Shown: piece by piece, positions 24,955-58,889 of the stretch
How the letters are laid out: every line of letters starts with the position of its first letter
Position numbering within the stretch: position 1 is the stretch's first letter
Assembly: GCA_973895155.1 (NCBI GenBank)
Contig: OZ316899.1
Span: 2,811,455-2,875,454, forward strand
Direction of reading: 5' to 3'
DNA from: Marsupella aquatica
Lineage: Eukaryota > Plantae > Marchantiophyta
Length of the DNA stretch: 64,000 nt
The notes under the pieces: generated by a model
The model's database searches: none
What the model was told of the DNA's origin: nothing
Seen by the model: only the letters and a program-made list of their open reading frames with translations
Translations under genes and position numbers: made by a program

Positions 24955-27900
24955 TGTCACGTCGTCAGCCTTGGCCTTACTCCGGGCTTCAGCTTAAACA
25001 GGCACACCCTTTGTCAAAATGAGGGTTCGGGCAGGGAGGGAGGCACGGAATGCACCCAACTTACGTAAAATAGTGCTAAGTGCGCCTATCATCATATACG
25101 GACACCTCCTAGGTATGGTTTGTGTTCCGCCGCCGGAACGTACCTCAATCGATAGTAGGATCGACCCTGGCTTAAGGGCTTCTAAGCCTTCGTATTGTCC
25201 GCCTTCGATCCGGATTTTGATGATATGGGTGCTCAACCCGGGCTCGCAACCACGTACACGCAAGATGCACCCCGTGCACTACTTGGGTAGTGCGTTTGGC
25301 CAAGCGTTGGCACCTATACACGAGATTCACACACATACATAAGCACAAGCATAAAATCTCAATTTACACGAAAGAAATAACGGGAAGGGATTTTACTCCA
25401 TAAGAGACATATGCGTACACTTAGTTGACCCGAATGCTCTGGAGTGAACAAGTTCGAGGCCGAGGGTGTACACTACAACGGAGCCCGGCTCCACACTCGC
25501 CCAACGAGCTTAGTCTTACACCCTCCCCTTGGTACTCTTTCACTCCCAGAGGTCGGGACTCCCCGCACATACCGCGGATGTCCAACACTGAGACTAAAAA
25601 CCCCCCTTGCCTCTACCGAGGGGTGCACTAAATACTAAGGGCCGAGGAATGGAGTGTCCTCCCGCTCAAAGATTCGCTGACTTAGGTCCTAACTAATCTG
25701 ACTGTCAGGCCGCAAAACGGCTGTGTCTTATTAGAAGATCCTAACCTACGCAGGCTGGACAGCATGGCGGTGCTGCTTTAACTAGGGCAGGTTCCTGTCC
25801 CCATAGCCTGATTTAGCTATTCCTAAACCTATTCTATTCCTACTCCGCCGCTAATGCCTGGCACGCTTGCCAGAGCCGTCCGAGTGGGAGCGGCCATCCC
25901 GCTACTTACGAAGTCTGTCGTTGTCCGCCTTGAGGAGCTGGACCTGGTCTAGCAGAGATTTGTTCTCTCGCTTCATCGCGTCCATCTCCTCCGCTGCCTC
26001 CTAGCATGCCTCCTCTAGCTGCTGGGCGTCGCTTGTCAGCTTGCCCACCACCTGGTCCTGCTTCTTGGCTTTGGTTTGGAGCCGTGCTACTTCGGCCTGT
26101 AGCGTGGCTATCTCCGCAGTGTCCCGCTGGGCCCGTTCTTTGGCCTCCTCCAGGTCTTTCGGCCAGATGATAGTTTGATTCTTCAAACTATCAATCTGGT
26201 TCCGGAGTTGTGCAATCTCGGCCTCGTTCCTAGCTTTGGCTTGTTCGGCTAGGGCGGTAAGGGCGTGTGCCTTTGCTAACAACTCATCGGCGGCTGCAAC
26301 TTTGGGTCGTAGTTGCAGAAGTTTAGCCTCTTGAGCCGCAACTTCGTTCTTTAAGTATACGGACTCCACCCGGTACCGCTCTATCCTCTGATGGGCCTCT
26401 GACTGGGCCCGACCTGCCTTTACTACGGCAACCAACTCCTGATTGAAGAAATAGGCTACCTTCCGGGCCATGAACTCCCCGGTATCCCGGGAAATTTGAT
26501 GAGAGAAATCTCCCAGAAGCCTGTTCAGAAATGTACCCGGTACAAAGAGTTCCGGGTGGTCCAGGTTGTGCCTGTCCGGATTTGGGCACGGGCAGAAGTC
26601 AACACGCGCGGGGGCCGGGGTAGTGACATCCAGCCCTGGAGATATAGTGTTGGAAGGGGTTGGAGTGTCCTCCTCTAGCAATGTCCGGTCCTCCGGAATA
26701 GCCACAGGTGGGTCTTCGGGAGACCCGGGCTCGAGTAAGGCCTCCGCTGTCCCGATTTTTGTACTTGGCCCGGCCTGGTTGATCGCATCTACGGTTGCGA
26801 TTACCGACCCATCTGGTACCTCATCGGCCACGGCTACAGCTACTTGTGGAGGTGGGGTGGGTGAAGCCTGCGTGGCCGCTGGACTTTGGGCCTCGGGTTG
26901 GGGCCGTCTCTCCAAGGCCGGGAAAACCCACCTAGCTGGGACCAGCTTTGTTACGTTGACACGGGGAAGGGTTCATCGATCAAACCGAGCGTACCACTCA
27001 AGAATGATCTCGATGTGGCTAGAAAAATACGCCTTCCCGCCAATGTATAGCGTCTTTCTTTGCCGCTCCATCTCTTCATGGAATTTCTTAGCGAAGTACG
27101 ACGCCCACTTCCTAGGTCGATAGTTCTCGACCTGGATAACCTGGGCAGCGGAGATCTCCCCCCAGGGTTCCATCATGTGGAGGGGGTACCTTTGGAACTC
27201 CAGTCGCTCAGCTATCTCGGGGATGAGGCAGGTCCTCATCACGAACCCATTGTCCACTGATCCCTCGGAGGGAAAACTTGAGGATTGGTACTTGGCTCCC
27301 TTGCCCTCGAGAGCCCGTGATTCAACTCGGTGGTCACCTTCGGGTAACCCGAAGATCATCTTGAGCCGTTCTTTCGTGAGGGACATATTCCTTCCCCGCA
27401 GCTGAGTATGTTGACGTGCGTCGTCATAATTCTTGACAAATTCCGTCATGTCCTCCCCGTAGTACCTGCAAGTGTTCTAGGGGAGAGAGGCAAGCTGCTC
27501 TAATCCCTGAGTTTTCAGGTACACCGCATGTTTGGGATGGAGGATGTTTTTATGCACGTTTCCCCCATGCGGTGCATTGTCACCTTGGCCGCGGCTACCG
27601 TGGCCATTGGTAACCCGGATGCAGCAGCAGGTTCCTTCCTCTTCTTCCCCCGTGATTGGCTCGGGGAGGGTGACACCTCCCCATCCTCTCGATCAGGCAT
27701 AGGTAGTGCTACCACCATTAGTATTGGGCCCAGGGCGGCCACGGTCACCGTGTTGTCTGCTGGAGCCGCTCCTTGGGTCCGGACATGGGGAGGGGACGAT
27801 GTAGTGTTGGCCCCCTGAGTGTTCGCTCCTCTGGGCCGCCTGAGCAAGGGTGGGGTAGCCTCATCATCGTCGCTAAGGTCCCCAGCGTTGATGACGGAGC

Positions 27901-28952
27901 GTACTTGTACTGGCGGGGCGATTGGCGGTGGGGGTTGGCTAGGCTGAGGCTGAGACTGAGGCTGAGCCTGAGTTTGCGTTGGCGCGGGTACAGGTATGGG
28001 GTCGACTGGGCCGGCACCGGCGGTTGAGGGTCTAGTTCCCATGAAGCTCTGTAGGTGCTGGTAGAAGTTCTCCGAAGCAAGTGCAGATGGCCTTGTCAAA
28101 CGGGTAGTGCTGGACTCGCTGTTGATGATAGCCGGAACCTGAGCAGGGATGTGGTTGAAGTGATGCCGTTGCAAGTCGATTGTACCCGGGATATCGAAGA
28201 CCTCGTCCGGAAGCCGAAGCAATGCTTCCCAGAAACCAATATATTTGTCTCTGTTGAAGAAGTACCCTGATACCTTTGCTGGTCGGTAAAGCTCGCTCTA
28301 AGACGGGTAGTCAAAGTTAAGGATATAGTGGTGTCATCCTGCTAGGTGGATGGCTCTCTCGTACTCGCGTTTGATTTTGTATCGGCGCGGGTTGGCGTGT
28401 TTCAATGAGTCGGCCAAGTGTCTTCCGGTAGATAGGAACTGCGTCCAGAATCGAATGGCCGAACTAGAGAGGATCGTGTGTGACATTAAGAGGAGATAGC
28501 AGTGGCGACTAAGAGAAAACGAGAGAGCTGGGGTTGAAGCTGGCGCGTGGACTGATGGACTGGTGCACTACAAAGGGTCGGCTCCCCTTTTATACCTTGA
28601 GGGCTCATCGATCACCCAACGTCTCCTCGTTGCTTATAGGCTGAACCGTTCACGCTTGTAGTGTACCGGCCACTCTGCCGGTCTAAGTCAGCGCGTGTCA
28701 GTGGCCGCTTCCCTAAGTTCATTATACAAACCCGAGGGAGGGGCCCCTCCATGCTCGCAACCCGGGCGTGCGAATGGCAACACGCCGCCAGTCCGAACAT
28801 GAATTCCCCTTATTGACTAATGATTTCCTACTCATAATGGTTACCTAAATACTGTCGTTATGCTAATAATAGCGGCCTAAGATACCCCTAACGCGCATGC
28901 TAAGTGCAGTTTAGACCAAATTACTCATTACTCGCGTACCGGCGGCGTCACA
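24955..28952 (-). mobile_element. Solo LTR E (3998 bp), Gypsy giant-LTR family related to A
   Basis: Minus-strand termini TGTGAC...GTGACA; perfect 5-bp TSD GTTTC at 24950-24954 and 28953-28957; no gag/pol inside. Confidence 0.92.
25902..28314 (-). pseudogene. ORF embedded in solo LTR E (~800 codons, stops and frameshifts), homologous to the LTR ORFs of A, B and C
   Basis: Fragments 28096-28314, 27515-28222, 26973-27449 and 26001-26915 (last two in frame, continuing to a TAG at 25902-25904). Motif EFVKNYD...TQLRGRNMSLTKERLKMIFGLP; C-terminal coiled coil. 5' start uncertain. Confidence 0.85.
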
Positions 28953-31603: not shown

Positions 31604-31610
31604 AGTAAGA

Positions 31611-32329: not shown

Positions 32330-32358
32330 TTGGACTTGGTGACCTCCTCTATGAATAT

Positions 32359-40017: not shown

Positions 40018-40296
40018 TGTTGTAGTGTATACTCCTTGGCCTTGGGCTCGTTTGTTCACGAGGTGTCGGGTCAACCAATCGTAAAGTGTATGATCATAAA
40101 TGAATGAAATCCTTTCTCCTTAATTCCTTCGTGTAAATCAAGATTTCTGTTATGTATGAATGCATGTATGAGTCTTGTGTGCAAGTATCAACGTCGGGCC
40201 GAACACGTTATGTCAACTGTGCACGGGGTGCCGGATACGGGTACGGGGTTGCGAGCCCGGGTTGAGCCTTTGTACTAATGGATCCGGATCGAAGGC
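40018..40296 (+). repeat. LTR fragment G, left part (E-family LTR 3' end) split by element C
   Basis: Reverse complement resembles 25201-25480 (e.g. GCCTTCGATCCGGAT, GCTCAACCCGGGCTCGCAACC, CACCCCGTGCAC). Confidence 0.75.
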
Positions 40297-43200
40297 TGTG
40301 ATGCCTAGCCAGGAATCACTGGGCTAGTTTAAGGGGGAAAGGGAAGTGTACCCTAGAAACACCTTAGTATAGTTACATAAATAAGGAAAATATAAACAAT
40401 TAAGGGTGACTATGGAACCCGAGCCGAGGCCGGAAGTAAGGACGCCAGGGGAGAGAACACGATTAGGGTTAGGGCACGCTAAGTGCCAGCGGCTAGGGGT
40501 AACCAACGGGAGGGAGAACCAGAGGAGGAGAGGGGTAAGGACCGCTCGCGAGGAATAGTAGCTCATTTGCAAGCACGAACTGAGCAGGCGACTACAGGCG
40601 GCCAACTACTGTCAACTGCTTAGGCAAGCGCTCAGCGTGGGGACAGATACCGACTATCAACTCAAGAAGGGTATGAGAAACGTCAATCAAGCGGCACATT
40701 TTTGGGGATGCCTGTTCGAACGGGCAACTGGGTACATTGGGACTTACGAGGACGCAGAATCGGAGAGAGTAGCTCGAGAATGGCTGGAGCTCGCCCGATT
40801 GTGGGAGCTGCAAAAAGCTACCTTCTTAGGAGGAGAACTCATCAAGGCTGAATTCCTGTGGACACCTACTGGCAACGAGCTAGACGACCTGCTGTTTTGC
40901 GAAGACAGAGTTGTCGGCATCCGAGAAGCCATCAAACGCTGCAACGACATACACTGGGAGTTGAAGGGTAGCACGGAGGGGTGGACAAAGGCAACCGTGC
41001 TAGGAGAGACATCCACGACAGCCGAGATGAAGAGGAAGGGGAACAACAATGAAGAGGCCACCCCGGCAAAAAGAACGCGGTCGGCGGCACCAAAGAAGCC
41101 AGCAAAACAACAAAGCAGGAGGCAAAGAGAAGCCGAGGAGGAGGAGGTCGACCCCATCAATGCCATTCCAACAAACGATGACACCTGGAAAGGCTGGGCG
41201 GCGACCCTACCGGAGGAAGTGCAATTACACTTTGCACGGGAGGAGGATGCATGCTTTACAGCCATGCAGACCAAGAAGTACCAAGGCTTCATGGCCGGAT
41301 CCGGCTTGGAAGCCTTCGTAAGATTACCATGGCTGAAGCCGGAGGTGCCGGACTCAGACTTGTTAGAATTCGTGGGATCATGGGAACCCGAGACCAATTC
41401 CACGAGGGTGTATGGGAAGGATTTCTATCTCACTCCCCGGGTGATTGCTGAAGTGTTTGGCTTGCCGATGGGTAATAAGACCAAGGTTGATACCAGGAAG
41501 ACCTTACCTGACAAGGAGTTTCGGTCGATCCCAGGACCATCAACAAAGAATGGCTTCTTCCGGAACACCTGCACCAACCCGCACATCGGAGAGATGATCG
41601 ATTTCTTGCGGGTGACCATGCACTGTAACTTGCCGAGGGCAGAGATCGGCAAGGCTCAGGTCTACCTGGCAGAAAGGCCAGACCCAAGCCGGGATTACAA
41701 CGGGTACCTCCTCAACCAACTGAAGAAGATCTTGAAGGAGGAACAGCAGGTGATCGGCGTGGGAAGTGTGTCCCGGCTTGGCTATCACATGCCACTGTTG
41801 TGCCGGTATGCCAGAAGTCAAATCTTTGCCCCAGTACTTCCCCTATCGACAAGAGCACCGGAGGAGGTCCCGGAGCAGAGGCCGACACCAGAGAAGCCCA
41901 ACCAGCCCGACAGTCCGACAATCGAGCAGGTGTTTAGACCAAGGAAAGAAGACTTGCCAATGCAGCAACCAGGCATGCAGAATCTGCTGAAATTGCTGGA
42001 GAAGGAAAGGAGAAGGGTTCCGGCAATGGCAACAAAACCGGCACCGATACAGGACGCTGCCCGAGAAGCCGATCTAAGCCGGCTTACAAGGGAAAACCCC
42101 TTTACTGGAGTCAAGGAGAGAGGGAGGCCGAAACACGAGCCGGGAGTTCAGATGTATGTAGGAGCCTCAAGTCCCAAAGCCGAGGAAAAGCAGGCCGTAG
42201 CTCCCAGCCACGACAAGGAGAACAAGAGATCAACACGGAAGCCGGAGGAGGAACCAAGACCGGTGAGAGGTGAAGCCGTGTTCACAACAAAACCAGGAGA
42301 ACAGCGGGAGAAGCCGGTAGTCCAAGCCGAGGAGGAGGCGGTAGAGGACTACAGCAATGATGACTTCGGCTACGGGTCGGATCATCATGTTCCAGGAGTA
42401 AGGACCTGTGGTCAGTTCATCCCCACGCTCCCAAGAGTAGTTCGAGGAGACCCAAGCCAGCAGAGCAGCCCCGAGTCTCCCCCACCAGATGTCGCTCCCC
42501 CGAGCTTTGACGGCATAAAACAGACGGCGCAGGAATTTCAGGAGCGAATCAGGGAGGAAGAGGAGGCAGCCCTGGCTAGGGAAAAGGATTTACGAGGAGG
42601 AGAATGGCCAGAGGACATCAGGCGGCTTGCAGAAAAACAAAGCAACCCTCTTGCCACCGTAGAAGAAATCCGCAAGACGGCTTGGGAGCAGAGGCCGCGG
42701 TGGTTGATGCCGATGACTTCTAGTTACTCCACCTATGCTAAGGATAGAGCCATGGAGTACGGGGAAATGTGTGGAGTGCTGGCGCTCAGCATCTTTGGGG
42801 AGGAGTTGGAGCAAGGACCCTTTTTCCAGAGGGAGATGTTGGAGAAGCGCCAATTAGAAGAAGCGGTGGCTTTGGAAAGAAGCAAGAAGGACGAGGTCAT
42901 CCGTCGGCTTAGGGCAAGAGAAGCCAAAATCAAAGACCTGGGGGCGGCCAAGAAAGCCCAAGATGAGTTGCGGATTAAGCGGCATGAGCTAAATATCATG
43001 CAAGGCCAATTGGATACCGCACAGTCTGATAATCGGATTATCGAGAATAAACTGACTCAAACCCAAGGAGAGTTGGCCGATGCGATCAAGGAGCGGGAGA
43101 AGTGGAAGCGAAAGCTGAGGGATGCAGAGGAGGCACACATAACGGCCAACAACCGGGCCATGGCGGAGACCCAGAGAAGGGAAAGGGCATTGAAGGGGGA

Positions 43201-45021
43201 GCTCGAGGTTATCCGCGGAGCCCTTGAGAAGAAGGAGGCCGAGTTAGGGAAATCCTATCAAGGGATTATTGCGCTGCAGCAGGAGCTTGCGTCCCTGACG
43301 GCCAGCTTCAAAGCCGACCTGCGTGAGAAGGACAATATGCTCGATCAGACTTACGCCAAGATGAACCAGATGGAGTGTGTCATCATTGCAGAGCTCGACA
43401 AGGAGTTAAGAGCGACCCAGGAGGAGAGAGCTACGTTTAAAAAGGAATTGGAGGAAGCCCAGAAGGAGCTGGAGGAGGCGCGCAAGGACCTGGACAAAGT
43501 GCAGGAGGAGTTGGAGGAAAGCACGCGGAAGCTAGAGAACTTACAACGACGAGCCGACAACCAAACGGAGCGGTTGAAGAAACAAGCCGCAGTATTTAAG
43601 TGCTTGGCTTCATCAGGGCCAACTCAAATTGAGGCCACTAAGTTACCAGGAGTGGTACTGGCTGAAGGACAAACCGCGCCATTTGCACCAGTGCTGGAAG
43701 TAAGTGAGAAGGGGAAGGGGCCAGCTGCCAAACCAGAAAAGAAGAAGAAACGGAAACCTTCAGGGTCAAGGAGTAATACGGCTCCACAGGCCGTGGTGAC
43801 CATGGAGATAAACCCAGCACCGACCTCAGGCAAGATTACGGCAGAGGATCCAACTACCCTAGAAGGGGATGACAAAGCCAAGGCCAGGATACTCGGTAAA
43901 GCCGAGGTACCCAATCTGCCACTTAAGTGTGCAGGGGAGGCCGTAGCCGAGGTTGATGTTGAAGCCGATACCGTAGCCGATGCCGGGGGTGGACCCAGTC
44001 AGGCTGATGGAGAGTTGACTGAGTCAAGGACAGGTAATCTATCAGAGAACGAACCTATGGCAGTGGCTGAGGAGGAAGCATTGGGGGCGTCCACTGAGGG
44101 ACAGACACCGCTGCCATGACGGTGGTGGAGGGCCGCTCCTTTCAAGGAGGGCGGACGTGGAGGGAGGAGGCGTGAGTGGGCAGGGCGGGCTCAGATCTCT
44201 AAGTTTAGGATTAGGATCAGGACCAGGAGGCGGCCCTGACACTTAGCTTAGTGGGATTGCGGTTCCACTGGTAAGAGCAACACTTGTACTCCTGCCTCGC
44301 TGTACATAGGTAGATTCAGTTAGGTAGATTAGGCTTACGCTGCAAAGAATTAGGCGGATCCACTACCAGGATAAGTACCTGGGCAGTGGGGAGCTCAGAG
44401 CCTCTTCTTTAGCAAGTTTTTAGTTGCACCAGCCGGGCTGGGATCAAGCAGTAAGAGAAGCTCTCGGTTAGTCATACAATGACCCTTGTGTATATTCATG
44501 TTTCCTCATGCCTAAGAGCTGAATAGAGTTGGCCTCACGGCTTAGTTCGCAGAGCTTGTGTATGAGATGTACTGTTTGTATGGCAAGTGCATGGTATGAC
44601 TCAATCAGAAGGAGTCATTTTGCTATTTGTGTGTCGCATTAACTTGTGTGAAGAGTGCCCACATCAACTAATAGATGAAGGAAAGTAAGCAAGGGAGTGA
44701 GAGTTGGATGTGTCGAGCTGAAAGAGGTCTTAGCGGCTTAACCAAGCCTATTGGGGATCATTCCGGCGGCGGAATCCAAATATACCTAACAAGAAGGAGG
44801 GGAAGACAAGGGAAGGCCTAGATTAGGCCAGCTACGTATCTCATGACCCGATGAAGGATCTGTCCAGTATATGTGTGTAAAATGTTAATAGTAGTAGTAG
44901 AGGGAGGTTAGCAGCGTCCCATGCCACTAAGCCGTGAAAACGGCCTCGCCAAGCGTGAAACTGCGGGAATCGGCTTGTGAAGGGGGTTTCTGGGGTTTAG
45001 GGAGCCATGGGACGCACCACA
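40297..45021 (+). repeat. Element C 5' LTR (4725 bp)
   Basis: Colinear with 51215-52001 plus 58890-62854 and with 16972-21637; followed by the PBS. Confidence 0.96.
40637..44119 (+). CDS. Intact LTR-embedded ORF (1160 codons): conserved plant-transposon-type domain, Pro/Glu-rich region, long coiled coil
   Basis: Uninterrupted frame inside the 5' LTR; first ATG near 40672. The ancestral ATG at 40392 is cut off by TAG-TAG (TGG-TGG in B). Confidence 0.88.
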   Translation: MGTDTDYQLKKGMRNVNQAAHFWGCLFERATGYIGTYEDAESERVAREWLELARLWELQKATFLGGELIKAEFLWTPTGNELDDLLFCEDRVVGIREAIKRCNDIHWELKGSTEGWTKATVLGETSTTAEMKRKGNNNEEATPAKRTRSAAPKKPAKQQSRRQREAEEEEVDPINAIPTNDDTWKGWAATLPEEVQLHFAREEDACFTAMQTKKYQGFMAGSGLEAFVRLPWLKPEVPDSDLLEFVGSWEPETNSTRVYGKDFYLTPRVIAEVFGLPMGNKTKVDTRKTLPDKEFRSIPGPSTKNGFFRNTCTNPHIGEMIDFLRVTMHCNLPRAEIGKAQVYLAERPDPSRDYNGYLLNQLKKILKEEQQVIGVGSVSRLGYHMPLLCRYARSQIFAPVLPLSTRAPEEVPEQRPTPEKPNQPDSPTIEQVFRPRKEDLPMQQPGMQNLLKLLEKERRRVPAMATKPAPIQDAAREADLSRLTRENPFTGVKERGRPKHEPGVQMYVGASSPKAEEKQAVAPSHDKENKRSTRKPEEEPRPVRGEAVFTTKPGEQREKPVVQAEEEAVEDYSNDDFGYGSDHHVPGVRTCGQFIPTLPRVVRGDPSQQSSPESPPPDVAPPSFDGIKQTAQEFQERIREEEEAALAREKDLRGGEWPEDIRRLAEKQSNPLATVEEIRKTAWEQRPRWLMPMTSSYSTYAKDRAMEYGEMCGVLALSIFGEELEQGPFFQREMLEKRQLEEAVALERSKKDEVIRRLRAREAKIKDLGAAKKAQDELRIKRHELNIMQGQLDTAQSDNRIIENKLTQTQGELADAIKEREKWKRKLRDAEEAHITANNRAMAETQRRERALKGELEVIRGALEKKEAELGKSYQGIIALQQELASLTASFKADLREKDNMLDQTYAKMNQMECVIIAELDKELRATQEERATFKKELEEAQKELEEARKDLDKVQEELEESTRKLENLQRRADNQTERLKKQAAVFKCLASSGPTQIEATKLPGVVLAEGQTAPFAPVLEVSEKGKGPAAKPEKKKKRKPSGSRSNTAPQAVVTMEINPAPTSGKITAEDPTTLEGDDKAKARILGKAEVPNLPLKCAGEAVAEVDVEADTVADAGGGPSQADGELTESRTGNLSENEPMAVAEEEALGASTEGQTPLP

Positions 45022-45025
45022 TTTT

Positions 45026-45042
45026 TGGCGCTAGATGGAGGG
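45026..45042 (+). other. PBS of element C (probably tRNA-Asn)
   Basis: TGGCGCTAGATGGAGGG after CACCACA-TTTT. Confidence 0.85.
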
Positions 45043-45090
45043 GGCATTTCTTAAGCCGTGAGATATGAAGTTAGGAAAGAAGCGTAGGTA

Positions 45091-48053
45091 ATGACTGAAT
45101 CTACGCCAAGGGAGGAAAGAGCGATTCAACGGGAGAGAGCTCGTCTGCAGCAGGTCACCGGGTGGCATGATACACAGCGACTGAGAGGGGCAAAAAGAGC
45201 TGGTAGCTTCGAAGATGGAAGTGGCGTCGAAGACGACATACCAGAAGAAGAGTCGGTAGGAAGAAACGAGTACCCAACCGACATGGGGGAACCAGAGGCA
45301 CGGCCAGACGAGAGGCCAGGGACCAGACTGAGCCAACGGTTGCGCATTCATTACAAGGCATTTCATGGGAGAGGAGATGAGAATCCGGACGAATGGTTGG
45401 ATGATTTCGAGGGAACCGCTGCAGCAAATGGAGAATCGGCCATCAAGATGCAGATTCTTCCCGGCCTGTTCAAGGGTGAGGCTAGGCCTTGGTATAGAGC
45501 ATTGGATGTGGAAGATCAACCCATCTGGGATACCTTCAAAACACTATTTGTTAAGGAGTTTCGACCCATTGGAACTTCAGAACTAGCAGTGCTGAAGTTG
45601 GGACGACTTCGGTTCAAGGAGAACAAATCCTTCAGGAAGTTCTTGCAACGCTTTCAGAAACTGGTAAGACGTACAAAGACAATGCATCTGAAGGTATGCA
45701 ACTTCAATGGTTGGTGAATGCTTTGCCACAGAAGATGAGTTTTGCAATTAGGAAGGAGAACCCAGAGACTTTAGCCGAGGCAATTAAAGATATTCAATTA
45801 TACATTAATGCAGATATCACAAGCCAGAAGAAACAGCTTAAGTCTGAGAGTTCCTCATCGGAGGAAGGATCACCCCATAAGAAAAAGGATAATAAAAAGA
45901 AACACTCTAAGAAGTCAAGAAGTAATAACTCAAGCTCGGATAGTGGAAGTAGCAAGAGTGAGTCATCCTCTAGTTCTGAAGAAGAAAAAACTAGGAAAAG
46001 GAGGGGCAAAAGAAGAGGGAAGACGAAAGTCAAGCTGGAGGCTAAACCACCAGATAACATTGTAGCCCTTACCGAGCAACTTAAAGCTATAATAGCAGAG
46101 GTAAAACCAAAGAAGAAGGTAGTGCAGGAGGATAGCTCTGTATGGTGTGCCTTATGTTATAAAACCGGATACCATAAAGATGCATGTCCTAAGCTCAATA
46201 CTAGTCATGTTCGGCATGTGGCTGAAGTCAGACCAAGTCAGGGAGAAGTAGAGTACTTTCTAGGAGATGCCGCTGATAGTGTTTTCGGCATCAGTGAGAC
46301 TGGAGCACGAGACCTATCCAACCGACCTGCATCTCTCTGGTTAGGATTAAGGAACAATCCAGGAGAGATGTATCCTCGGATTATTCAGAATCCGTCAGTA
46401 CCTCCTAGGCCGAATGTGCAAAGATTTGCGGCATGCTATAATTGTGGTCAACCTGGCCATTTTGCTAGAGAATGCCCGAATGCACGCAAATAAGGTGATG
46501 GACAGCCAGCTCAGCTATGTATGGGATGCCGACAGGAGGGTCACATGCTAGGACAATGTCCTACTTGGTTGGCGGGATTGGCCGCAAATCATAAGCTCTT
46601 GCCGGTCAAGGTCTTGCCGCCAGGTACTACCCCAGGAGGAGTTCAAATCAACCATATCGAACTCGGATGGCAAGTGGATGCCGAGGCAGAATTTGGACCA
46701 TCTGATGATGAGACCGAGGCCCTATCAACATTTTCAGAAGAGGATATGGATTGTGATTGCTACCGGGTCTCTACTCGATCAACCAGAAGGAAGGAAAGGT
46801 GGGATGGGCTGGCCAAAAATAAAGGGAAGGTTCAGGAAGAAAAGATCGACTCTTCGTCAACATCAACGGAAGGAGAAAGAAGGGCACCGTCAACACAAGC
46901 AAGCCATGAGCCCACCAGTGAGCCCAATCCTTCACAGGACAGCAACTTCAATCGAGACCACCCTAAGTTGTTCTACCCATCTATCACGGCTAGTATTAAG
47001 GAACAACTGCGAGAATTAGAAACCCTGGAGAATACTGAAGCCATAGCCAAGGATATGAAACGAGCAAAAGCATTGTTTGCTTCGGAAGATCCAACGGCTG
47101 TGGGGACTAGCGTGACACCACTGGAGAAGCCGATAGTTCCCTATGACCTGGCTAAAGATGTACTAGAATCTAGAGTCTCGGCAACAGTAGGTCAACTATT
47201 GAAAAATAGCCCGTACTTCCGGAAGCAGTTAAGAAAAGCGATCCTCGGCAAGCCAAGATTACCCAAGGTAGCGACCAGATCCGACGTACTAATGATAGAA
47301 GAAGATCAAGGAGCCCCAGCATTACCATTAGTGATTCAAGGAGAAATATTACTACGGGTACCCATCGATGGAGGATCAGGGGTATGTATTATGATTGATT
47401 CAACAGCAAAGGGGTGGGGTCTAACACCGGAAATGACTGGAAGAGTGTTGAACATGGCCAATGGGTATCAGGTCATTCCCACGGGAGTGTTAACCGGCAT
47501 CAAGACAGAGATAGGAGGTATCTTCTTTAGCATTAACTATGTAGTAATGAAGCCGGTAAATCCTACGTCATTCCGGCTATTGATTGGTAGGCCGTGGCTA
47601 TACCTAGCCAAGGTAATAGAGGATTGGGGTAAGAAGGAGTTCACTTTTGGGACCCCCTCTATCACGGTATCCTGGGATACCAAGGATGACCGCAGAAGAA
47701 AGATCAAGGAGGTAGACGGGTACGATAGTGGACTGGAATCAGCCGATGAGGTACGATGGTTAGAATGCCTCGCTGACCAAACCGAAGAAAGTGTCTTTGG
47801 ACCAGAGGTATCCCCCAACGGACTATGGCAAGAACCTATGGAGAATGACTTGGAGGATTGTGAAGACGAAGCCGAGGACTGCTTTGCCATAGAGTCCACT
47901 TTTTTAGCTGCAATTCCGGAGGAAGCACAAGAAGTAAGCCAATTGGATGAAACGGCTAAGGGGGGAGCTATACCCGTGATGGTGGATTTTCCTCAGGCGT
48001 TGTGGCAGAGCCGGCAGGATCCACAACGCCGTCTATCATTGGCAAGCAATTAA
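45091..48053 (+). pseudogene. gag: Element C ORF1 gag-protease (1-nt deletion near 45680, TAA at 46491-46493)
   Basis: Fragments 45091-45717, 45696-46493 and 46521-48053 are colinear with the intact B ORF1. Confidence 0.93.
47984..48030 (+). other. Putative -1 frameshift signal of element C
   Basis: G GAT TTT in the ORF1 frame, 5-nt spacer, 10-bp stem GGCGTTGTGG/CCACAACGCC. Confidence 0.75.
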
Positions 48054-51000
48054 ATACCAAGGGATCGGCATACAAGCCGATTACGAGGGCAGAACAAATT
48101 GAGGCCCTAATAGAAGCCGGGAGAGCACAGCGGCCTGACCCTCAGGAGGAAGAGGTGGAAGAGATGCACAGACACAATCCAGAGCCGAGGCAGGAAGGGA
48201 AGCCGACTACCAATTCAAAACCGAATAGACCGGCAAGGAGACAATCTATGGGCACCAAGGGAGAAACCGACTCGGCTAGTACAGCCGAGATTCCAGTTTA
48301 TGGAGGTATGAGACTGGAGAGGCTGGAAGCCGAGCTGGACCCGAATTTGAAGAAGCAGATTAATATGATCCAAGCACGGCAATATCGGAAGCTTGACTTA
48401 GGAGAAGGAAGGGAACTGAACTTAGGGAGAGACCTAGCACCTGAGCTTGAGAAAGAAATCAATGACTTACTGATTGAATTTCAGGATGTGTTCGCATGGA
48501 GTCACCAAGATCTAAAGGGAGTAGATCCAACATTAGGGGAACATCGAATTGATCTCATGTTAGGAGCCAAATCATTCAGACAACCAATTCGAAGGATGAA
48601 TCCTAAGTATTCCCTGATGGTCAAAACAGAAATCGACAAATTAGTGGAAGCCGGATTCATCACTCCAGTCCTGCATTCAGACTGGGTGTCTCCAATTGTG
48701 ATAGTACCTAAGAAAGCTGGACCCGATGGTCAACCCAAGATCCGCGTTTGTCAGGATTATAGAAAGTTGAATGAGGCTACGTTGAAAGATCATTTTCCTT
48801 TACCCTTTACTGATATGGTGTTAGACATGGTAGCCAGTCATGAACTATATTCATTCATGGATGGGTACTCTGGTTATAACCAAATCAGGATTAGGCAGGA
48901 GGACCAAATCAAGACGGCCTTCATCACGGAATGGGGGATCTATGTCTTCAATCGTATGCCGTTTGGACTCTGTAACGCACCAGCTATGTTTCAACGATTG
49001 ATGGTGAACATTTTCCATGATTACTTGAGAAAGTTCATGGAAATCTTCATTGATGACTTTGCAGTATTCGGGAAGGCATCGAAACATGCTAAATACCTAA
49101 GGAAAACCTTCATGAGATGCAGAGAGGTAGGTCTCAAGTTACATCCAGATAAATGTTTCTTTGGGGTAACAAAAGGTGTGCTACTAGGTCACAAGGTATC
49201 AAAGAAGGGCATTGAGATTGACAAGGGTAAGCTAGCAGTATGGCTTGACATCATGCAACCTAAGAACATAAAGGATGTAAGATCCTTCTTGGGTTGCATT
49301 GGGTATTATCGCCGGTTTATTAAAGATTTTGCCAAACTAGCTTTACCATTAACCAACATGCTCAAGGCAGGCGCAGACTTTGAACCCACACCAGAAAGAG
49401 TAACAGCTGTGGTGGAATTAAAGCAAAAGTTAGTGGAAGCCCCAGTCATGATAGCACCAGACTGGAACAAGGAATTTCATGTCTTTGTAGATGTCTCAGG
49501 CTTCTGTATCGGCTCAGTACTAAGTCAGTTGGATGAGAAAGGGAGGGACCATCCCATATACTTTGCAAGCCGTCAGCTTGCCGATGCCGAACGGAACTAC
49601 TCCACCACAGAAAGAGAAGCATTAGGAGTCATTTATTCATGTAAAAAGTTTAGGCATTATTTGCTAGGGTACAAGGTAATCTTTCATACCAATCATGAAA
49701 GTTTGAAGTACCTAGTAAATAAGCCGGACCTTACAGGCAGGGTAGCAAGATGGATTTTGCTATTACAGGAGTTTGACTACGAGTTAAAGATCAAACCGGG
49801 GAAGCTACACGCCAATGCCGACTTCTTTTCAAGGATCACAGGTGAACCTGCCATGGATTGCATCGATGATCGATTCCCCGACGAGGAGCTATTCGTTGTG
49901 GAAATAGCTGATACATGGTACTCGGAGATTTTGCAATTTCTCAGCACGACCAGATTACAGCCAGGGCTAACCCGAGAACAAGCCGCAATCTTTCTGCGGA
50001 AGGTCAGACAGTATCAGTACATTAAGGGTGTACTACACAGGTATGGAATCAACGGCACTTTTCAAAGGTGTTTAGAAAAGGGAGAGGTAAAACGAGTCTT
50101 ACGGGCTATGCATGGAGAAGAGGCCGGAGGATATTTTGCTCCAGTAACCACTTCTAAAAAAATATTAAATGCCGGTTACTGGTGGCCCACCTTGCACAAG
50201 GATGTCTATCAGTTCATCAAACAATGTGATCCCTGTCAGCGAGCAGGAGGACCAAGGGCGTCTACAAGACATCCACTGCACCCTATTCTACCTCTGGCAC
50301 CATTTGAGAAGTGGGGTATTGATTACATTGGACCGCTGAAACCATTAACCCATCCTCGGAGAAACAAGTATATAATCCTGGCCACGGATTATGCAACTAA
50401 GTGGGTGGAGGCCAGACCGACAACGAAGGATGATGCAATTACTACAGCTCGATTTCTGTATGAGCAGATCTTCACCAGGTATGGAGCACCCCTAGAATTA
50501 GTTAGTGATAGAGGAACCCATTTTCTGAATGATATAATTAGTCGTTTAAATGAGCAGTATTTAGTTAGACATAGGCCTACTACTCCTTACCACCCAAAGG
50601 CAAATGGATTGACAGAACGAACCAATGGGATTATAGGAAAGATATTGAACAAGATAGTAGCTCAGAACAAACTCAATTGGGATGATAAATTGTTTGCTGC
50701 TGTTTTTGCTTACAATTTAGCCTATAAATCCACCACTGGACATACACCCTTTTTCTTAACCTTTGGACAAGAAGCTCTGGTACCCATGCAACTTGAGATA
50801 CCGACATTTCAAGTTACAATTGAGGAAAGAGTCTCAGAGGAGGAAAGCCTGAAAGAGCGAGAATATAGATTAGAAGCTTTAGAGGAGGCAAGAATGATTT
50901 CAGCCGAGAGAGTAGAATATAGACAGAATACCATGAAGCAGCAGTATGATAAAAAGTTGAAAGTAGTTAGTATTCACATAGGAGATCTTGTATTACTTTA

Positions 51001-51226
51001 TGACAGTAGGTATAGTAGGTTTCCAGGGAAGCTTTACACTCGCTGGTTAGGACCTTTCAGGGTATCAAAGAAGTTCCCCAACGGCTCTGTGCAATTGGCC
51101 AACATTACCAGAGAGGTGTACCCAGTTCGTATTCACTACGACCGCCTCAAGAAATACTATATGGACAAAGATGAAGTTGTTCGCGAGGACGCTTCACAAT
51201 TAAGTGGGGAGCTATGTGATGCCTAG
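48002..51226 (+). CDS. pol: Element C ORF2: intact RT, RNase H, integrase
   Basis: 1074-aa open frame with FIDD, FVDVSG, WGIDYIGP, SDRGTHF and GPF motifs; stop lies inside the 3' LTR. Confidence 0.95.
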   Translation: MAEPAGSTTPSIIGKQLNTKGSAYKPITRAEQIEALIEAGRAQRPDPQEEEVEEMHRHNPEPRQEGKPTTNSKPNRPARRQSMGTKGETDSASTAEIPVYGGMRLERLEAELDPNLKKQINMIQARQYRKLDLGEGRELNLGRDLAPELEKEINDLLIEFQDVFAWSHQDLKGVDPTLGEHRIDLMLGAKSFRQPIRRMNPKYSLMVKTEIDKLVEAGFITPVLHSDWVSPIVIVPKKAGPDGQPKIRVCQDYRKLNEATLKDHFPLPFTDMVLDMVASHELYSFMDGYSGYNQIRIRQEDQIKTAFITEWGIYVFNRMPFGLCNAPAMFQRLMVNIFHDYLRKFMEIFIDDFAVFGKASKHAKYLRKTFMRCREVGLKLHPDKCFFGVTKGVLLGHKVSKKGIEIDKGKLAVWLDIMQPKNIKDVRSFLGCIGYYRRFIKDFAKLALPLTNMLKAGADFEPTPERVTAVVELKQKLVEAPVMIAPDWNKEFHVFVDVSGFCIGSVLSQLDEKGRDHPIYFASRQLADAERNYSTTEREALGVIYSCKKFRHYLLGYKVIFHTNHESLKYLVNKPDLTGRVARWILLLQEFDYELKIKPGKLHANADFFSRITGEPAMDCIDDRFPDEELFVVEIADTWYSEILQFLSTTRLQPGLTREQAAIFLRKVRQYQYIKGVLHRYGINGTFQRCLEKGEVKRVLRAMHGEEAGGYFAPVTTSKKILNAGYWWPTLHKDVYQFIKQCDPCQRAGGPRASTRHPLHPILPLAPFEKWGIDYIGPLKPLTHPRRNKYIILATDYATKWVEARPTTKDDAITTARFLYEQIFTRYGAPLELVSDRGTHFLNDIISRLNEQYLVRHRPTTPYHPKANGLTERTNGIIGKILNKIVAQNKLNWDDKLFAAVFAYNLAYKSTTGHTPFFLTFGQEALVPMQLEIPTFQVTIEERVSEEESLKEREYRLEALEEARMISAERVEYRQNTMKQQYDKKLKVVSIHIGDLVLLYDSRYSRFPGKLYTRWLGPFRVSKKFPNGSVQLANITREVYPVRIHYDRLKKYYMDKDEVVREDASQLSGELCDA
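51202..51214 (+). other. PPT of element C
   Basis: AAGTGGGGAGCTA before TGTGATG. Confidence 0.88.
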
Positions 51227-52001
51227 CCAGGAATCACTGGGCTAGTTTAAGGGGAAAAGGGAAGTGTACCCTAGAAACACCTTAGTATAGTTACATAAAT
51301 AAGGAAAATATAAACAATTAAGGGTGACTATGGAACCCGAGCCGAGGCCGGAAGTAAGGACGCCAGGGGAGAGAACACGATTAGGGTTAGGGCACGCTAA
51401 GTGCCAGCGGCTAGGGGTAACCAACGGGAGGGAGAACCAGAGGAGGAGAGGGGTAAGGACCGCTCGCGAGGAATAGTAGCTCATTTGCAAGCACGAACTG
51501 AGCAGGCGACTACGGGCGGCCAACTACTGTCAACTGCTTAGGCAAGCGCTCAGCGTGGGAACAGATACCGACTATCAACTCGAGAAGGGTATGAGCAACG
51601 TCAATCAAGCGGCACATTTTTGGGGATGCCTGTTCGAACGGGCAACTGAGTACATTGGGACTTACGAGGACGCAGAATCGGAGAGAGCAGCTTGAGAATG
51701 GCTGGAGCTCGCCCGATTGTGGGAGTTGCAGAAAGCTGCCTTCTTAGGAGGAGAACTCATCAAGGCTGAATTCCTGTGGACGCCTACTGGCAACGAGCTA
51801 GACGACCTGTTGTTTTGCGAAGACAGAGTCGTCGGCATCCGAGAAGCCATCAAACGCTGCAACGACATACACTGGGAGTTGAAGGGTAGCACGGAGGGGT
51901 GGACAAAGGCAACCGTGCTAGGAGAGACATCCACGATAGCCGAGATGAAGAGGAAGGGGAACAACAACGAAGAGGCCACCCCGGCAAAAAGAACGCGGTC
52001 G

Positions 52002-52332
52002 TGTTGAACTAAGATGTCATTCGCAACGACCATACAACCATGACTTATTCCATGCACACGTAGTCGACACAATCTCTACGTGGTTCACCTCTTCTCCAAG
52101 GCTACGTCCACACGAACACTCAAGCTTTACTTCAAGAGTAAACGAACACACATGCTCTCCCTCTTCCTCAAGTTGCTCCGTTACAAAAATGAGTAAGCAC
52201 CACTCACCAGCGGCTTACACTAGCCCATATACAAGGTCACACATGACTAACCTAACCTCAGCTAAGACCCTAACTGTGGTTAGCCTAAGTGCCGTAACCT
52301 TTGAGTCACAAGACTAAGAGCAATCCTTAACA
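52002..52332 (-). repeat. Element H 3' LTR
   Basis: TGTT...AACA; direct repeat of 58559-58889. Confidence 0.97.
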
Positions 52333-52536
52333 AACTCCCCCTTGACTCTAGTCTTGGGGACTGCAATTTCTGCTATCCATATGAGATACTCAGCGGGAAA
52401 TTCTAGACAATCACCTAAAACCATAGGTGTCCCCCTAAAAACCATTTAAGGTTAACTAAGAGTTAACTAGAATTAAGCCGTAGCCATAACAGGATTGAGT
52501 AACTCATATACAGAAATCACATCTTGTTAAGTTACT

Positions 52537-55500
52537 CTACTTGTGCTGCAAATGCAAAACCTGCAAAGTAGCACGGTGTCTTGAGTAACTCTCCAAAGGA
52601 ATCACTTTGGTAAAAGCATCAGCCGGGTTGAGTTTTCCATCGATCTTGACTAGCTTAAACATTTTATCAGACACTGCTTGCCTAATAAAATGGTACCTAA
52701 TGTCAATGTGCTTCACCCTGCTATCCATCACCTGGTTAATAGCTAGGTGAAGCGCACTCTGGCTGTCACAATGAAGAGCCATTTTTCCATGCTCCAATCC
52801 CATCTCAATGACCAGCTTATCCAACCAAATTGCTTCCTTTGCTGCTTCTGCTGCTGCAACATATTCTGCTTCTGTAGTAGACTGAGATACACACTTCTGC
52901 AAGGTAGATCTCCAACTTATGCATCCTCCTCCAAGAGTAAACACATACCCAGTCGTTGACCTCCTTGTTTCCAGACAGCCTCCGTAGTCAGAATCTACAT
53001 AGCCAACCAATGATTTGGTTTTGTTTGATTTACTATCAAACAACAAACCATAGTCTATTGTGCCTTTAAGATACCTGAGAATCCATTTCACAGCCTCCCA
53101 ATGTACCTTCCCTGGATTTGACATGAATCTACTCACTTTGCCCATTGCTAGGGCTAGATCAGGCCTGGTACATGTCATCAAATACATTAGACTGCCCACT
53201 GCCTTCTCATAAGGAACCTTAGTCATCAAGCCTCTCTCCACTGGATCCGTGGGGCAGAAAGCTGATGATAACTTGAAATGTGGAGCCAAAGGAATACTTA
53301 CTGGCTTACAATTTTCCATGTTGAATCTTGCAAGTACCTTACCTTTTCAGCATACTTGCCTTGATTCAGCCACAATTGTCCAGTTTCAAAGTTCCTTGTA
53401 ATCTCCATACCTAAGATCCTTTTGGCTTTCCCAAGATCCTTCATTCAAAATTCAGAACTCAATTTTGCTTTGAGTTTGTCAACCTCAGTTTGATCCTTAG
53501 CCGCAATCAACATGTCATCCACATAGAGCACCAAAATGAGCAAACCAAACACACCATTCTTGACTGATTTCGTATACACACAAGGGTCATACACCATCCT
53601 AGTGAATCCTTGTGCAAGCATGAAATCATCAAACCGCTTGTTCCACTGTCGAGGAGCTTGCTTCAATCCATAGAAGGACTCAAGCAACCTGCAAACTAAA
53701 CTCTCTTGGCCCTTCTTCACAAAGCCCAGTGGTTGCCTCATGAAAATTTGTTCTTCCAAGGTGCCATAGAGAAAAGCAGTAACAACATCCATTTGATCTA
53801 ACACCAGATCAAAAAACACAACAAGTTGACACAAAATTCGTATCGTGGAATACTTGGCAACTGGAGAGAAGACCTCATTGTAATCCACTCCCTTCTCTTG
53901 AGTGAATCCCTTGGCAACAAGCCTTGCCTTGTATATCTTGTCTCCTCCATCTGAAGAGTTGTCCTTCAGCTTGTAAATCCACTTGCTATCCACCACTTGT
54001 TGATCACTTGGCAGCTGCACCAGCTCCCATGTTCTGTTGTCACTTAAAGATTGCAACTCCCTCTGCATCGCTGCATTCCATTCATCTTTCTCGTCTGAAA
54101 TGCACGCCTCATGATAAGAAGAAGGTTCTCCTTCTTCCAAGATTAGTGCTCTATCATCATCTTCAGGTGCAATGTCAACATCATCTAACCTTGATGAATC
54201 TGTCCATTGTCCATACCTTGTAGGAGCTCGAGTAGTACGTCTCGATTTTCTAGCTGATGATTCTGGTTGATCTTGTTCTGTTGGTTGAATTTGAGGTATT
54301 CCAACAACAACCTGCTCCTCTTGTTCCAATACCGGAACCAGCTCCATTCTCGGAGCACCTCCTTCATTTATGTCATGAAAACTCTCATGACCAATCTCCC
54401 CCACAACATGGTCCAGGATAGGAGATTTACCTTTGTCAGTACGGGAAGCCTGAGCATCCTCCCCCTCCTTTGATGATCTGGATTCATTAAAGGATACATC
54501 TCTACTGACAAGCAATGTACAAGCTTTTGGATCCCATAGCCTGTAACCTTTCACACCTGGTTGATAACCAAGAAAAAGACACTTCTTGGAAGTAGAATCT
54601 AGTTTAGATCGATTTTGTTTAGGTGTGAGAGCATATGCATCACTTCCAAAGACTCTCAAAACCTGATAGTCTGCGTGCCGTCCATACCTCATTTCAAATG
54701 GCGTCTTGAAATTGATTGCACTTGAAGGAGAAAGATTTACCAAATAAGTTGTCGTATTTATAGCTTCAGCCCAAAATTCATGCGGTAAACCTGATTGGCT
54801 CAACATACTTCTCGATCGCTCCAATAGTGTTCGGTTTAGCCGCTCACAAACACCATTCTGTTGAGGAGTATAAACTGTCGTGAGATGACGAGTAATCCCT
54901 TGCTCTGCACAATATAGTTCAAATTCACTTGAACTGTACTCCCCGCCGTTATCTGATCGCAGATATCTCACCTTTGATCCAGTCTGATTCTCAATTTGGA
55001 CTTTTCACTTCTTAAAAGTGCCAAAAACTTCAGACTTGGCGTGTAGAAATGTGATCCACACATACCGTGAGTAATCATCAATGAACGTGACATAGTACAA
55101 TTTTCCAGAAAGTGAGGGAGTTGGGGCTGGACCCCACACATCACTATGTACATATTCAAGTATAGCTTTGGTATTGTGAGTTCCAACACCAAAGGTTCTC
55201 CTGTGCTGCTTCCCAAGCACACAGTGTTCACAAAAATCTAGCTTAGTAGATTCCAAATTAGAAAGAAGTCCTTTCCTGCGAAGTACCGCCAAACCCGTTT
55301 CACTCATGTGTCCTAATCTGCAGTGCCACAACTGAGTCATCTCGCATTGAGATCTAGTTACATTGGCTTCTTCACAAATCACGTTGCCCTCCAACAGGTA
55401 TAGATTCCTGTGCCGCTTACCCTTCATGACAACCTTGCCTCCGGTTGACACTTGAAGAATACCATCAGCAGAACTCCACCGACATCCATTTGCTTCCAGC

Positions 55501-56696
55501 ATTCCAAGAGAAATCAAGTTCTTTTTCATGTCAGGTATGTGTCTGACATTACTCACTGTTCGCACAACTCCATCAAACATCCGAATTTTCACGGATCCAA
55601 TTCCAATAATTTGACAAGGATGATCATTCCCCATCAACACGGAACCGGTTGATACTGAGTAAGAACTAAAAAACTCTTTCATACAACAAATATGATAGGT
55701 ACAAGCACAGTCTAAAATCCATTCATCACCGTTGTTACTGGATGAAATGCAAAGGGCAACATCTTGACTTCACAAGATTTCATCATCAAGCAAGTCAATC
55801 ATATCAACATCAGTGGCTGCGTTCGCTGATGGTTGATGTGTCTGCTTGACTCGACAGTCTCGTTTCATGTGGCCAGGCTTGTTACATTTCCAGCATATAA
55901 TTGGTTTCCTTTCTAGAGATTTCTCTCTAGACCTGGATCTAGACTTAGACCGAGCCTTCTCCTTGCCTCTATTCCGTGAGGGGTACGTTTGTGAAAAGGA
56001 CCTATTTTTGCTAGTCATCCGCTGTTGAGTCCTCCCACGGTTCACATTCAATGCACTGCCAGATGAAGATGGTGTTTGGGTATGACCCAGTTTCTTCTGT
56101 GCATCATCTGACAGCAACGAGCTTACCACCTCATCATATGAAATAGTTTTGAGGTCTCTATACAAGAGAACCTGCTTCAAACCTTGATACGATGGGGGTA
56201 AGGAGCTGAGAAGAAGCAATGCCTTATCTTCATCTTCCACTCCCTTGCCAAGATTTGATAAATCTACAGCCAGGCTGTCGAATTCATCCAAGTGATCTCG
56301 AAGCTTGCCTCCTTCTTTTAGCCTCAAGCTCATCAAGAGAGACTTCTTGTACAACTGATCTGAGGCATCCTCTCGGTAGTACTTCTCTCTGAGGGCCTTG
56401 AATAAGGATACGCAATCCTTATAGTCGTCCAGCTTCTTAATGATATGCGGCTTCAGATACAGCATAACCGCATTCACAGCAATCACTTGCTCTTGCCTCC
56501 ATTTCCTCAATGGGATCTCTTCCTCACTGCTAGACTCCTCCCGAGTCGATAGCAGATGATCTAGGCCCATAGCACGAAGAATTCCCTTAACCTGCTTCTC
56601 CCATAGCAAATAATCTGTGCGCCCATCATATTTTTCCACCTCAAACTTGACACCTCCAAACTTGGATGCCATCGTTGTCCTCCCAACGTTCTCCAC
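52537..56696 (-). pseudogene. pol: Element H gag-pol with nonsense and frameshift lesions
   Basis: 55770-56696 gag (CWKCNKPGHMKRDC), WILDCAC protease, 55005-55682 GAG-pre-integrase, 53445-54971 IN-RT (SDNGGEY, KARLVAKGF, YVDDM), 52537-53319 RNase H (CDSQSA, KHIDIRYHF). Stops at 55770 and 55005; frame break near 53445. Confidence 0.95.
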
Positions 56697-58544
56697 GTGC
56701 TATTGCTGTGCTGCTCCCTATATGCTTTTTCCTTCCTTCCTTCTCGTTGACTCAAATCCAAATCACGAAAAAATATCGTTTTTCACAACTTTCCAAAAAA
56801 CTTGAAACTTGTCACTGCCACGTAGCCCACCAGCCTAGCAAGCCAATGCTGAAATCCAAAATTGAAATCGAGTTCCGACGAAAAACTTTTTCACGTTTCG
56901 GTCGGGGTGGGTAAAACTCAAAAAATTCTCCCCTGTTTTGACCACCTCGGGGAATAAGAAAAATTTTAAGTACCACCCGTCGTCAGAAATGCAAATCGAG
57001 TGGTGCACCGCGTTGCTAGCTTCAGTGGCTACGTCCTCGCCAAAAAAGATCCGAAAAAGTTACCATTCGGACCTTGGAATCTTCAACTAAAGGCCGAAAA
57101 ACAGCTCTCTGTTTTTTCGGAATATTCCTTGGACTGTGCGGCAGGTCTCACAGGGGGCCGTTCCCCCTGTCGGAGCGGTTAAATTGCCGGGTGACCGGGC
57201 CCGGGATGTCGTTTAACCAATGGGAAGAGAGAATGAGAATTAAAATTTGGACCTTAAGGGGGTGCTAAGCCCCTTAGTAAAAATACAGCCTTAAAAGGCG
57301 CACACACGTCGCCCATACGCGTGACGGGCCAGGCGGAGTATGGCGTGAGGGAGGCGCAAATACGCGCTCCTATACGCGCGCCAAGGAGGGCACGAGGCCC
57401 TATGGAGCATTAATGAGGGGGGTATGCCAAGGGTCGCGAGGCGTGGGAGGATAACCGCTGACGAAGGGGGAGGGAGAGGTAAAATGGCTCGCGAGGGGGG
57501 GAAGGTTGGGCAGGCGAGTGCCAAGTGTGGGCACGAGGCCCTATGAACCGTTAATAGCCCACAAGGGAGGAGGAGGCGCATGGCAAGGCGAGGCGAGAGG
57601 GGAGGTGGGGCACGATGCCCTATGGAGGATTTAAGAGGGGGGGTGAGGTGTCGCAAAGGCAGGAGGGAGGGAGGAGGCGTGATAGGCTCAGGAGGGGGGG
57701 GGCGTATACAGGGTGTATACTCGCGCCCAAGGGGGGGTGGTGGCTTATACAGGGCGGCAGGGGTATACAAGTGCCCCCCAAAACCCCTAAAAGCCAAAAA
57801 AAAAAAATTTAAAAATGCCTCAAACAAAAATGTCGGGAACACACCTTGTCGCCGCCTTTTCCAACAAGAAAAGTGATCACCGCCGACGGGAAAAAGTTGC
57901 CAAATTTCACCGGCGCCGTCAGCAGCACCAGAAAGGGAAAAAATTTCCGTCACGTTGCCTTCACTCCGCGTCAAGTGCCAATCCCGGACTCAAAATGACC
58001 GCCTCACCGCGATCTCTCCTTTAAGCCGTAGCACTTCACGAATCTTCCTCTGAGTCGGACGTAACGACAAGAAACCCCGCTTCAGTCAAAAGAAGACTTC
58101 ATAGCCGGTCAGAAACTCAGAACGGCTCTTTTGCTCGGAACGTCGCACTCGCTACACCTTCGATAGTAGACCAGCTACCAAAACGATCAGCTTTGCCCGA
58201 TCTACGATTTGAGCTATAGTATGTGACGCCTCGCGCACCACTAAGCTCACACCGTCGGGAAAACGATCTTAGTTCCCCCCCAAAAGAACCGTCGAAGAAA
58301 ACCGTCGAACACGAATCACAAAAAATCCAGAACGACGGAAACGTGAATTCCTCCGCACCACGAACTCCGTTCAGAGATTTCTTTGCACCGTCGGAAAGCC
58401 CTTGCCCCGATCTATTCGTTGAGCCCAACACCTCCAAGTTCCATGCGATAGATCTCCGTGAAATCCACCAACTCTAACCGCTGGAAAAACCGTCACCAAC
58501 ACGTCACGAAAATTTTGATCACCTCAATGTCACCTCCCAGGCTT

Positions 58545-58556
58545 GCTCTGATACCA
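58545..58556 (-). other. PBS of element H (tRNA-iMet)
   Basis: TGGTATCAGAGC, 2 nt from the LTR end. Confidence 0.95.
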
Positions 58557-58558
58557 AT

Positions 58559-58889
58559 TGTTGAACTAAGACGTCATTCGCAACGACCATACAACCATGA
58601 CTTATTCCATGCACACGTAGTCGACACAATCTCTACGTGGTTCACCTCTTCTCCAAGGCTACGTCCACACGAACACTCAAGCTTTACTTCAAGAGTAAAC
58701 GAACACACATGCTCTCCCTCTTCCTCAAGTTGCTCCATTACAAAAATGAGTAAGCACCACTCACCAGCGGCTTACACTAGCCCATATACAAGGTCACACA
58801 CGACTAACCTAACCTCAGCTAAGACCCTAACTGTGGTTAGCCTAAGTGCCGTAACCTTTGAGTCACAAGACTAAGAGCAATCCTTAACA
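58559..58889 (-). repeat. Element H 5' LTR
   Basis: Direct repeat of 52002-52332. Confidence 0.97.

Follow-up and report, generated by a model that had tools for sequence, protein, structure and literature searches.

The window analyzed here is a 64,000-nucleotide stretch of the liverwort Marsupella aquatica (GenBank assembly GCA_973895155.1, contig OZ316899.1, positions 2,811,455 to 2,875,454 of the forward strand), dense in transposable elements (TEs) on self-comparison, in which a Ty3/gypsy long terminal repeat (LTR) retrotransposon, element C, carries a large open reading frame (ORF) inside its LTR. Element C (40297-62854) lies between two copies of AAGGC, its target site duplication (TSD; 40292..40296 and 62855..62859, + strand). 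Its 5' LTR (40297..45021, +; 4,725 bp, TG..CA) is followed by a primer binding site (PBS), TGGCGCTAGATGGAGGGG, at 45026..45043 (+), which may be tRNA-Asn-like and would then suit Athila elements, whose PBS is for tRNA-Asp or tRNA-Asn. Gag, a zinc knuckle, a protease region, reverse transcriptase (RT), RNase H, and integrase follow in gypsy order (45091..51226, +), and a conserved polypurine tract (PPT) module, TTCGCGAGGACGC..AAGTGGGGAGCTA, lies directly at the end of pol (51180..51214, +; PPT end, 51214). The 3' LTR is in two parts (51215..52001 and 58895..62854, both +), separated by a nested Ty1/copia element (52002..58889, −; 331-bp LTRs, TSD GGTCG) that splits the 3' copy of the ORF, the decayed remains of which lie in the second part. 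With gag, the RT-RNase H-integrase order, LTRs, PBS, PPT, and TSD all present, C is a Ty3/gypsy element. The pol frame crosses the PPT and stops about 10 bp into the 3' LTR both in C (51215-51226) and in its sister element B (16972-16983).

The two LTRs of element C differ at 105 of 4,723 aligned sites (2.2%). When the flanks of C were rejoined, they gave an empty site matching the LTR end of another family in the window, family D, and in one of four runs (X3), among the rows listed, the same site showed up as a loose end at 40296. Because the TSD, PBS, and PPT set its limits and the flanks rejoin into a D-like empty site, the 4.7-kb repeat is a true LTR, and the features from which an earlier note on this DNA had fixed its limits (TSD AAGGC, PBS at 45026, and PPT) were confirmed. 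That the repeat is instead a segmental or tandem duplication, with a short true LTR, has a negligible probability. Nothing was found in its favor; in C, and likewise in B, the repeat is enclosed by TSD, TG..CA, PBS, and PPT, family D is represented by a solo LTR of 4 kb that has a TSD of its own, and the termini of a metagenomic relative (L001) are inverted and matching. Segmental duplication was excluded by element B, which has the same LTR elsewhere with its own PBS and PPT.

The stop-free frame in the 5' LTR spans 1,185 codons, compared with a shuffle maximum of 335 (n = 300 shuffles). A 1,160-codon ORF at 40637-44119 had been proposed in the earlier note; its location within the LTR was confirmed, but its start was not. 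Element B has GAG in place of the GTG at 40637, the 37 codons that precede the ATG at 40673 are neutral (dN/dS ratio, omega, of 1.05), and homologs begin at a Met aligned with this ATG; we therefore place the real start at 40673, which gives an intact ORF with a predicted product of 1,148 amino acids (aa) (40673..44119, +). The same ORF is found in the 3' LTR of element B (16972..21637, +; 4,666 bp), where it has 79% aa identity to that of C and contains 3 stops. Differences between the two ORFs were distributed 127/108/268 over the codon positions, and 4 of 4 ORF indels were in frame, whereas 9 of 10 noncoding indels were not multiples of three. Omega was 0.29 (kappa-aware codon model; P = 1e-31), compared with 0.105 for pol under the same kind of model. 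Along the ORF, omega was 0.21 for aa 1-125, 0.11 for aa 176-400, 0.35 for aa 401-660, and 0.20 for aa 661-990, and the C-terminal 158 codons were neutral (omega, 1.13). For the 5'/3' LTR pair of C, expected to be neutral, omega was 0.67 (P = 0.08), with codon positions at 28/26/32. In noncoding 44297-44896, B and C differ by 3 to 5%, compared with synonymous divergences of 0.43 for the ORF and 0.29 for pol.

A ratio near 1, which the earlier note had named as evidence against its proposal, was thus not what we found; judged from these codon comparisons, the ORF is under purifying selection, and the LTR-resident accessory gene is almost certainly real. It is very improbable that the ORF is a nonfunctional or passive insert, such as a captured host gene or a low-complexity open frame. 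Breaks in most of the window's copies (B, A, D, and the 3' copy of C) and the neutral C-terminal codons would suit such an insert; however, selection is strong across aa 1-990, the ORF is conserved between families at 25% identity and through a deep pol clade, its predicted fold is confident, and the breaks fit decay after insertion. In the 3' LTR of C, the duplicate that the earlier note had described is present but not intact, with 4 stops, 3 frameshifting indels, and the copia insertion, so that two copies per insertion holds for the time of integration and no longer for this element. Polarized substitutions numbered 36 in the 5' copy (0 stops) and 52 in the 3' copy (4 stops plus frameshifts), and the contrast between the copies could reflect chance or selection on this insertion.

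Three other families in the window have homologs of the ORF in their LTRs, one of these LTRs being a solo LTR. The 5' LTR of the distant family A (6487..10322, −; about 3.8 kb, 3' end approximate, PBS at 6467) carries a broken homolog at 9771-7468, and the solo LTR of family D (24955..28952, −; 3,998 bp, TSD GAAAC) carries another, with a TATA box and a CT-rich leader; the A and D homologs are 25 to 28% identical to the ORF of C. The PBS of element A (6468-6487, −) is apparently 13 to 18 bp from the LTR end (GCGACA), farther than in C and B. A profile search returned 86 homologs; species names were obtained for 7 of 20 looked up (6 Calypogeia, 1 Riccia), and the entries from Calypogeia and Riccia bear the label of unnamed or hypothetical protein. 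The nearest named pol relatives are from Calypogeia fissa (70%) and Riccia sorocarpa (59%), and in the pol tree the C, A, and Calypogeia rows cluster together, which by itself would point to a probable liverwort host.

Metagenome loci were fetched with pol (n = 80). In four close relatives among them (L001, L002, L003, and L077), the PPT is directly followed by TG just past pol, and an ORF homolog starts 436 to 770 bp farther on; both inverted LTR ends and the PBS are visible in L001, whereas the layout of the other three is read from the PPT-TG junction. In L017, a 554-aa homolog, which matches Transposase_32 below the cutoff, lies between pol and the conserved PPT module. A rooted pol tree (17 rows, a subset of 25) united all six LTR-resident elements tested and two Riccia rows in one clade (99/98), sister to the L017 clade, and a topology joining L017 with C and A was rejected. 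On this phylogenetic evidence, keeping the gene within the LTR is a clade-wide layout. As L017 and angiosperm Athila elements keep such an ORF internal and the LTR-resident elements form one clade, a single relocation is the simplest reading: the extra ORF was probably enclosed in the LTR once, in the clade ancestor, from a position between pol and PPT, a reading for which L017, its 5' LTR unseen, is the one internal example. The move into the LTR proposed in the earlier note is thus likely in its origin, from an internal Athila-like position, but not established in its destination, U3 (the unique 3' part of the LTR).

In angiosperm Athila elements, as far as the cited reports describe them, the extra ORF is internal, between pol and the 3' LTR, and carries Transposase_32/PF20167 (PMC6317226, PMC11728184, PMC7264820). 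Element C resembles them in its gypsy order without an archaeal RNase H (no Pfam match in its pol at an E value of ≤0.05, the domain by which Tat/Ogre/Retand elements are recognized), in its extra sense ORF, homologs of which match PF20167 below the cutoff, and in its 5-bp TSD, which, in both C and D, fits Athila (REXdb) and not the 4-bp TSD of Phygy and Selgy; L017 shares the Athila layout itself, with its homolog between pol and PPT. In contrast, the ORF of C lies past the PPT, within the LTR, the internal region being gag-pol only. Its pol is 46 to 49% identical to the nearest angiosperm matches and belongs to a separate, bryophyte-associated clade, and the angiosperm matches form a clade of their own on a long branch (in a tree built without REXdb reference rows).

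The predicted protein comprises an N-terminal helical domain (aa 1-115; 40673..41017, +), conserved and also found in the A, D, and Calypogeia homologs; a core (aa 173-388; 41189..41836, +) with a predicted VANC21/DUF1985/PMD/Transposase_32-like fold; a charged, proline-poor, likely coiled-coil region (aa 661-990; 42653..43642, +); and a basic KKKKRK stretch (43739..43756, +) resembling a nuclear localization signal. VANC21 (PDB 9lnk) was the sole solved structural match of the core, at 10% identity, and the predicted structure shows the DUF1985/VANC21 fold that characterizes VANC proteins. The protein itself had no DUF1985 Pfam match at an E value of ≤10 (one distant homolog matched below the cutoff) and no match to PF10536, and no transmembrane segment, a trait of env-like ORFs, was found (best 19-residue Kyte-Doolittle mean, 0.87). 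VANC21 is described as the anti-silencing protein of the Arabidopsis MuDR DNA transposon VANDAL21 in the portions of the reports available (PMC5735166, PMC13547354). Unlike VANC21, the ORF protein is encoded by a gypsy LTR retrotransposon and has an extra N-terminal domain; the likeness is one of predicted fold. A structural link between PMD and DUF1985 is published, and PMD-A is gypsy encoded (PMC5418596; bioRxiv 10.1101/2024.09.27.615353); together with an Atlas lead, that link, as available in part, places the core in the superfamily of MAIN, MAIL1, MAIL2, and PMD-A, although those sources, to the extent available, describe PMDs from angiosperms and not within LTRs. The core is thus predicted to fold like the VANC21/PMD class, and this modeled fold speaks for a DNA-binding factor of the VANC/PMD type, not for a protein like those encoded by mouse mammary tumor virus (MMTV) sag or human immunodeficiency virus (HIV) nef.

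VANC proteins are marked by DNA binding at specific sequences with loss of methylation and by short target motifs that have built up in the element encoding them. Target words were sought by synonymous-codon shuffling, scoring the concordance of the top word across independent coding parts. The top word recurred across coding parts in 3 of 3 relatives (a CCGGA core in L001 and L003; ATTGG in L017), compared with 0 of 19 control elements, and AAGCCG or AGCCGA topped the 6-mer lists of C ORF, C pol, and B pol. C and A did not pass the 5-mer concordance test, and a Markov test did not set C apart from controls; no tandem-repeat target array was found in C. CCGG occurred 12 to 24 times per kb in L001 to L003, compared with 1.5 to 2.7 in the window's copia and other DNA, and L001:1-7517, L002:1-3314, and L003:1-5193 are saturated with TCCGGA/CCGGA, with short tandem arrays before the TATA box. 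Family-specific target words in the clade are suggested by the concordance test.

Anti-silencing appears to us the most likely function of the protein, at slightly better than an even chance. A real LTR-resident gene whose product serves replication or targeting instead is a less probable explanation, which we hold possible but doubtful; the protein could, for example, be a coiled-coil chromatin tether that steers integration toward LTRs of its own family, or it could transactivate the promoter of the element. In favor of this, proteins of the same fold class bind DNA or chromatin, the coiled-coil region is constrained like the N-terminal domain (omega, 0.20), and elements nest mutually within the window, A in the 5' LTR of B and C in a D-like LTR. 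Any TE-dense region would, however, be expected to show such nesting, which copia elements also display here; the sole solved structural match is an anti-silencing factor, and the word enrichment in coding regions of relatives fits a binder that protects against marks.

Upstream of the ORF of C, a TATA-like TATAAA (40391..40396, +) is a candidate promoter, and a splice-donor-like GGTAAGG (40534..40540, +) is a candidate donor in the leader; both are conserved in B. Splice-donor-like words are also present in the leaders of L001 to L003 before the ORF (AGTGGTGAGG). Leader splice donors might let gag-pol RNA skip the ORF and the poly(A) site. Of 8 LTRs checked, 6 have TATA[AT]A ahead of the ATG, and in D, L002, and L003 a CT-rich leader comes after it. 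Between the ORF stop and the LTR end, none of three (C, A, and D) has this motif; TGTA clusters (in C, 44489..44580, +) and a shared hairpin were found there instead. We take the TGTA cluster to resemble a plant poly(A) signal and the TATA/CT-rich leader a plant promoter. The hairpin, TTCCRGCGGYGGAA (44761..44774, +, in C; also at 62920), is common to the LTRs of C, B, A, and D and a host fragment, E; followed by ATACCTA, it lies 180 to 260 bp before the LTR end, though other noncoding DNA barely aligns. It had no Rfam match and is a candidate packaging or dimerization element.

These motifs do not establish the U3 position that the earlier note had thought probable. The ORF may instead lie downstream of the element's own promoter, in a long R (the repeated part of the transcript ends), and a separate subgenomic promoter would then be unnecessary; between a long R, where the upstream site would also start the genomic RNA, and U3, where it would serve the ORF only, we see roughly even odds. 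Genes in or overlapping U3 are represented by MMTV sag and HIV nef, which likewise are duplicated along with the LTR; the gene of C is much larger (3.4 kb), belongs to a plant retrotransposon, possibly lies in R rather than U3, and encodes a soluble, likely nuclear protein. A sag-like arrangement, differing in anatomy only, with the ORF in U3 behind its own promoter and genomic RNA starting at a TATA-less site past the stop, falls just short of an even chance. With it, neither a 4-kb R nor a poly(A) site ahead of gag would be needed, and moving a gene out of the pol-PPT interval would naturally place it in U3; moreover, the B-C divergence drops from 15 to 25% over much of the ORF to 3 to 5% in 44297-44896, and this step may be the trace of strand transfer at a short R. 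The internal region, however, diverges by only 2 to 14% throughout, and the step may reflect fast ORF evolution, not a crossover; the missing TATA[AT]A past the stop in C, A, and D and the canonical TATA that, with a CT-rich leader, precedes the ATG of D, L002, and L003 also speak against it.

Elsewhere in the window lie a decayed copia element that solo LTR D interrupts (21643-24950, −), another decayed fragment, with gypsy RT and integrase (29300-31276), and several fragmented ORFs of an element or gene (36486-39382, −). The 29- to 40-kb interval contains short tandem-like repeats at 84- to 112-bp spacing (31610-32635) and is strongly enriched in AGCGCC/GCGCTA.

The element type and the domain superfamily are already known; in the literature, of which our coverage was limited, we found no LTR-resident gene of a plant clade and no VANC-like fold in a retrotransposon accessory gene. 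On balance, and with modest confidence, we read C as a Ty3/gypsy element whose LTR gene encodes a predicted VANC/PMD-fold DNA-binding protein that likely protects its family from silencing. Enclosure of an Athila-type extra ORF from the pol-PPT interval would have left the PPT module preceding the gene, and with the TATA-like site and poly(A)-like tract each LTR, even a solo one, would become a promoter-ORF-terminator unit yielding an mRNA of about 4 kb. Gag-pol would need read-through, combined with splicing or else a second start. Once in the nucleus, the protein would form oligomers by way of the coiled coil, bind to a short DNA word specific to the family, and reduce, in trans, the repressive marks carried by family members, in the manner of VANC21 acting on VANDAL21. 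More speculative, and in our estimate unlikely as a whole, is that a bryophyte gypsy clade made its LTR a self-contained anti-silencing cassette, with the VANC-fold gene in an R of about 4 kb between promoter and poly(A) site.

A plant retrotransposon clade keeps a gene of this kind within its LTR, beyond removal by solo-LTR formation, and LTR finders or extra-ORF surveys limited to the internal region would overlook the gene or mistake it for one of the host. An ORF in R would also raise the question of expression and reverse transcription of a 15-kb RNA that has a poly(A) site ahead of gag. Through the structural link to VANC21, the long-unexplained Athila-type extra ORFs (Transposase_32/PMD class) gain a concrete, testable function. 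If the cassette reading is true, VANC-like systems exist in retrotransposons and predate the dicot VANCs, and a sequence-specific anti-silencing protein would still be supplied in trans by solo LTRs, which as products of host-driven deletion are normally dead ends.
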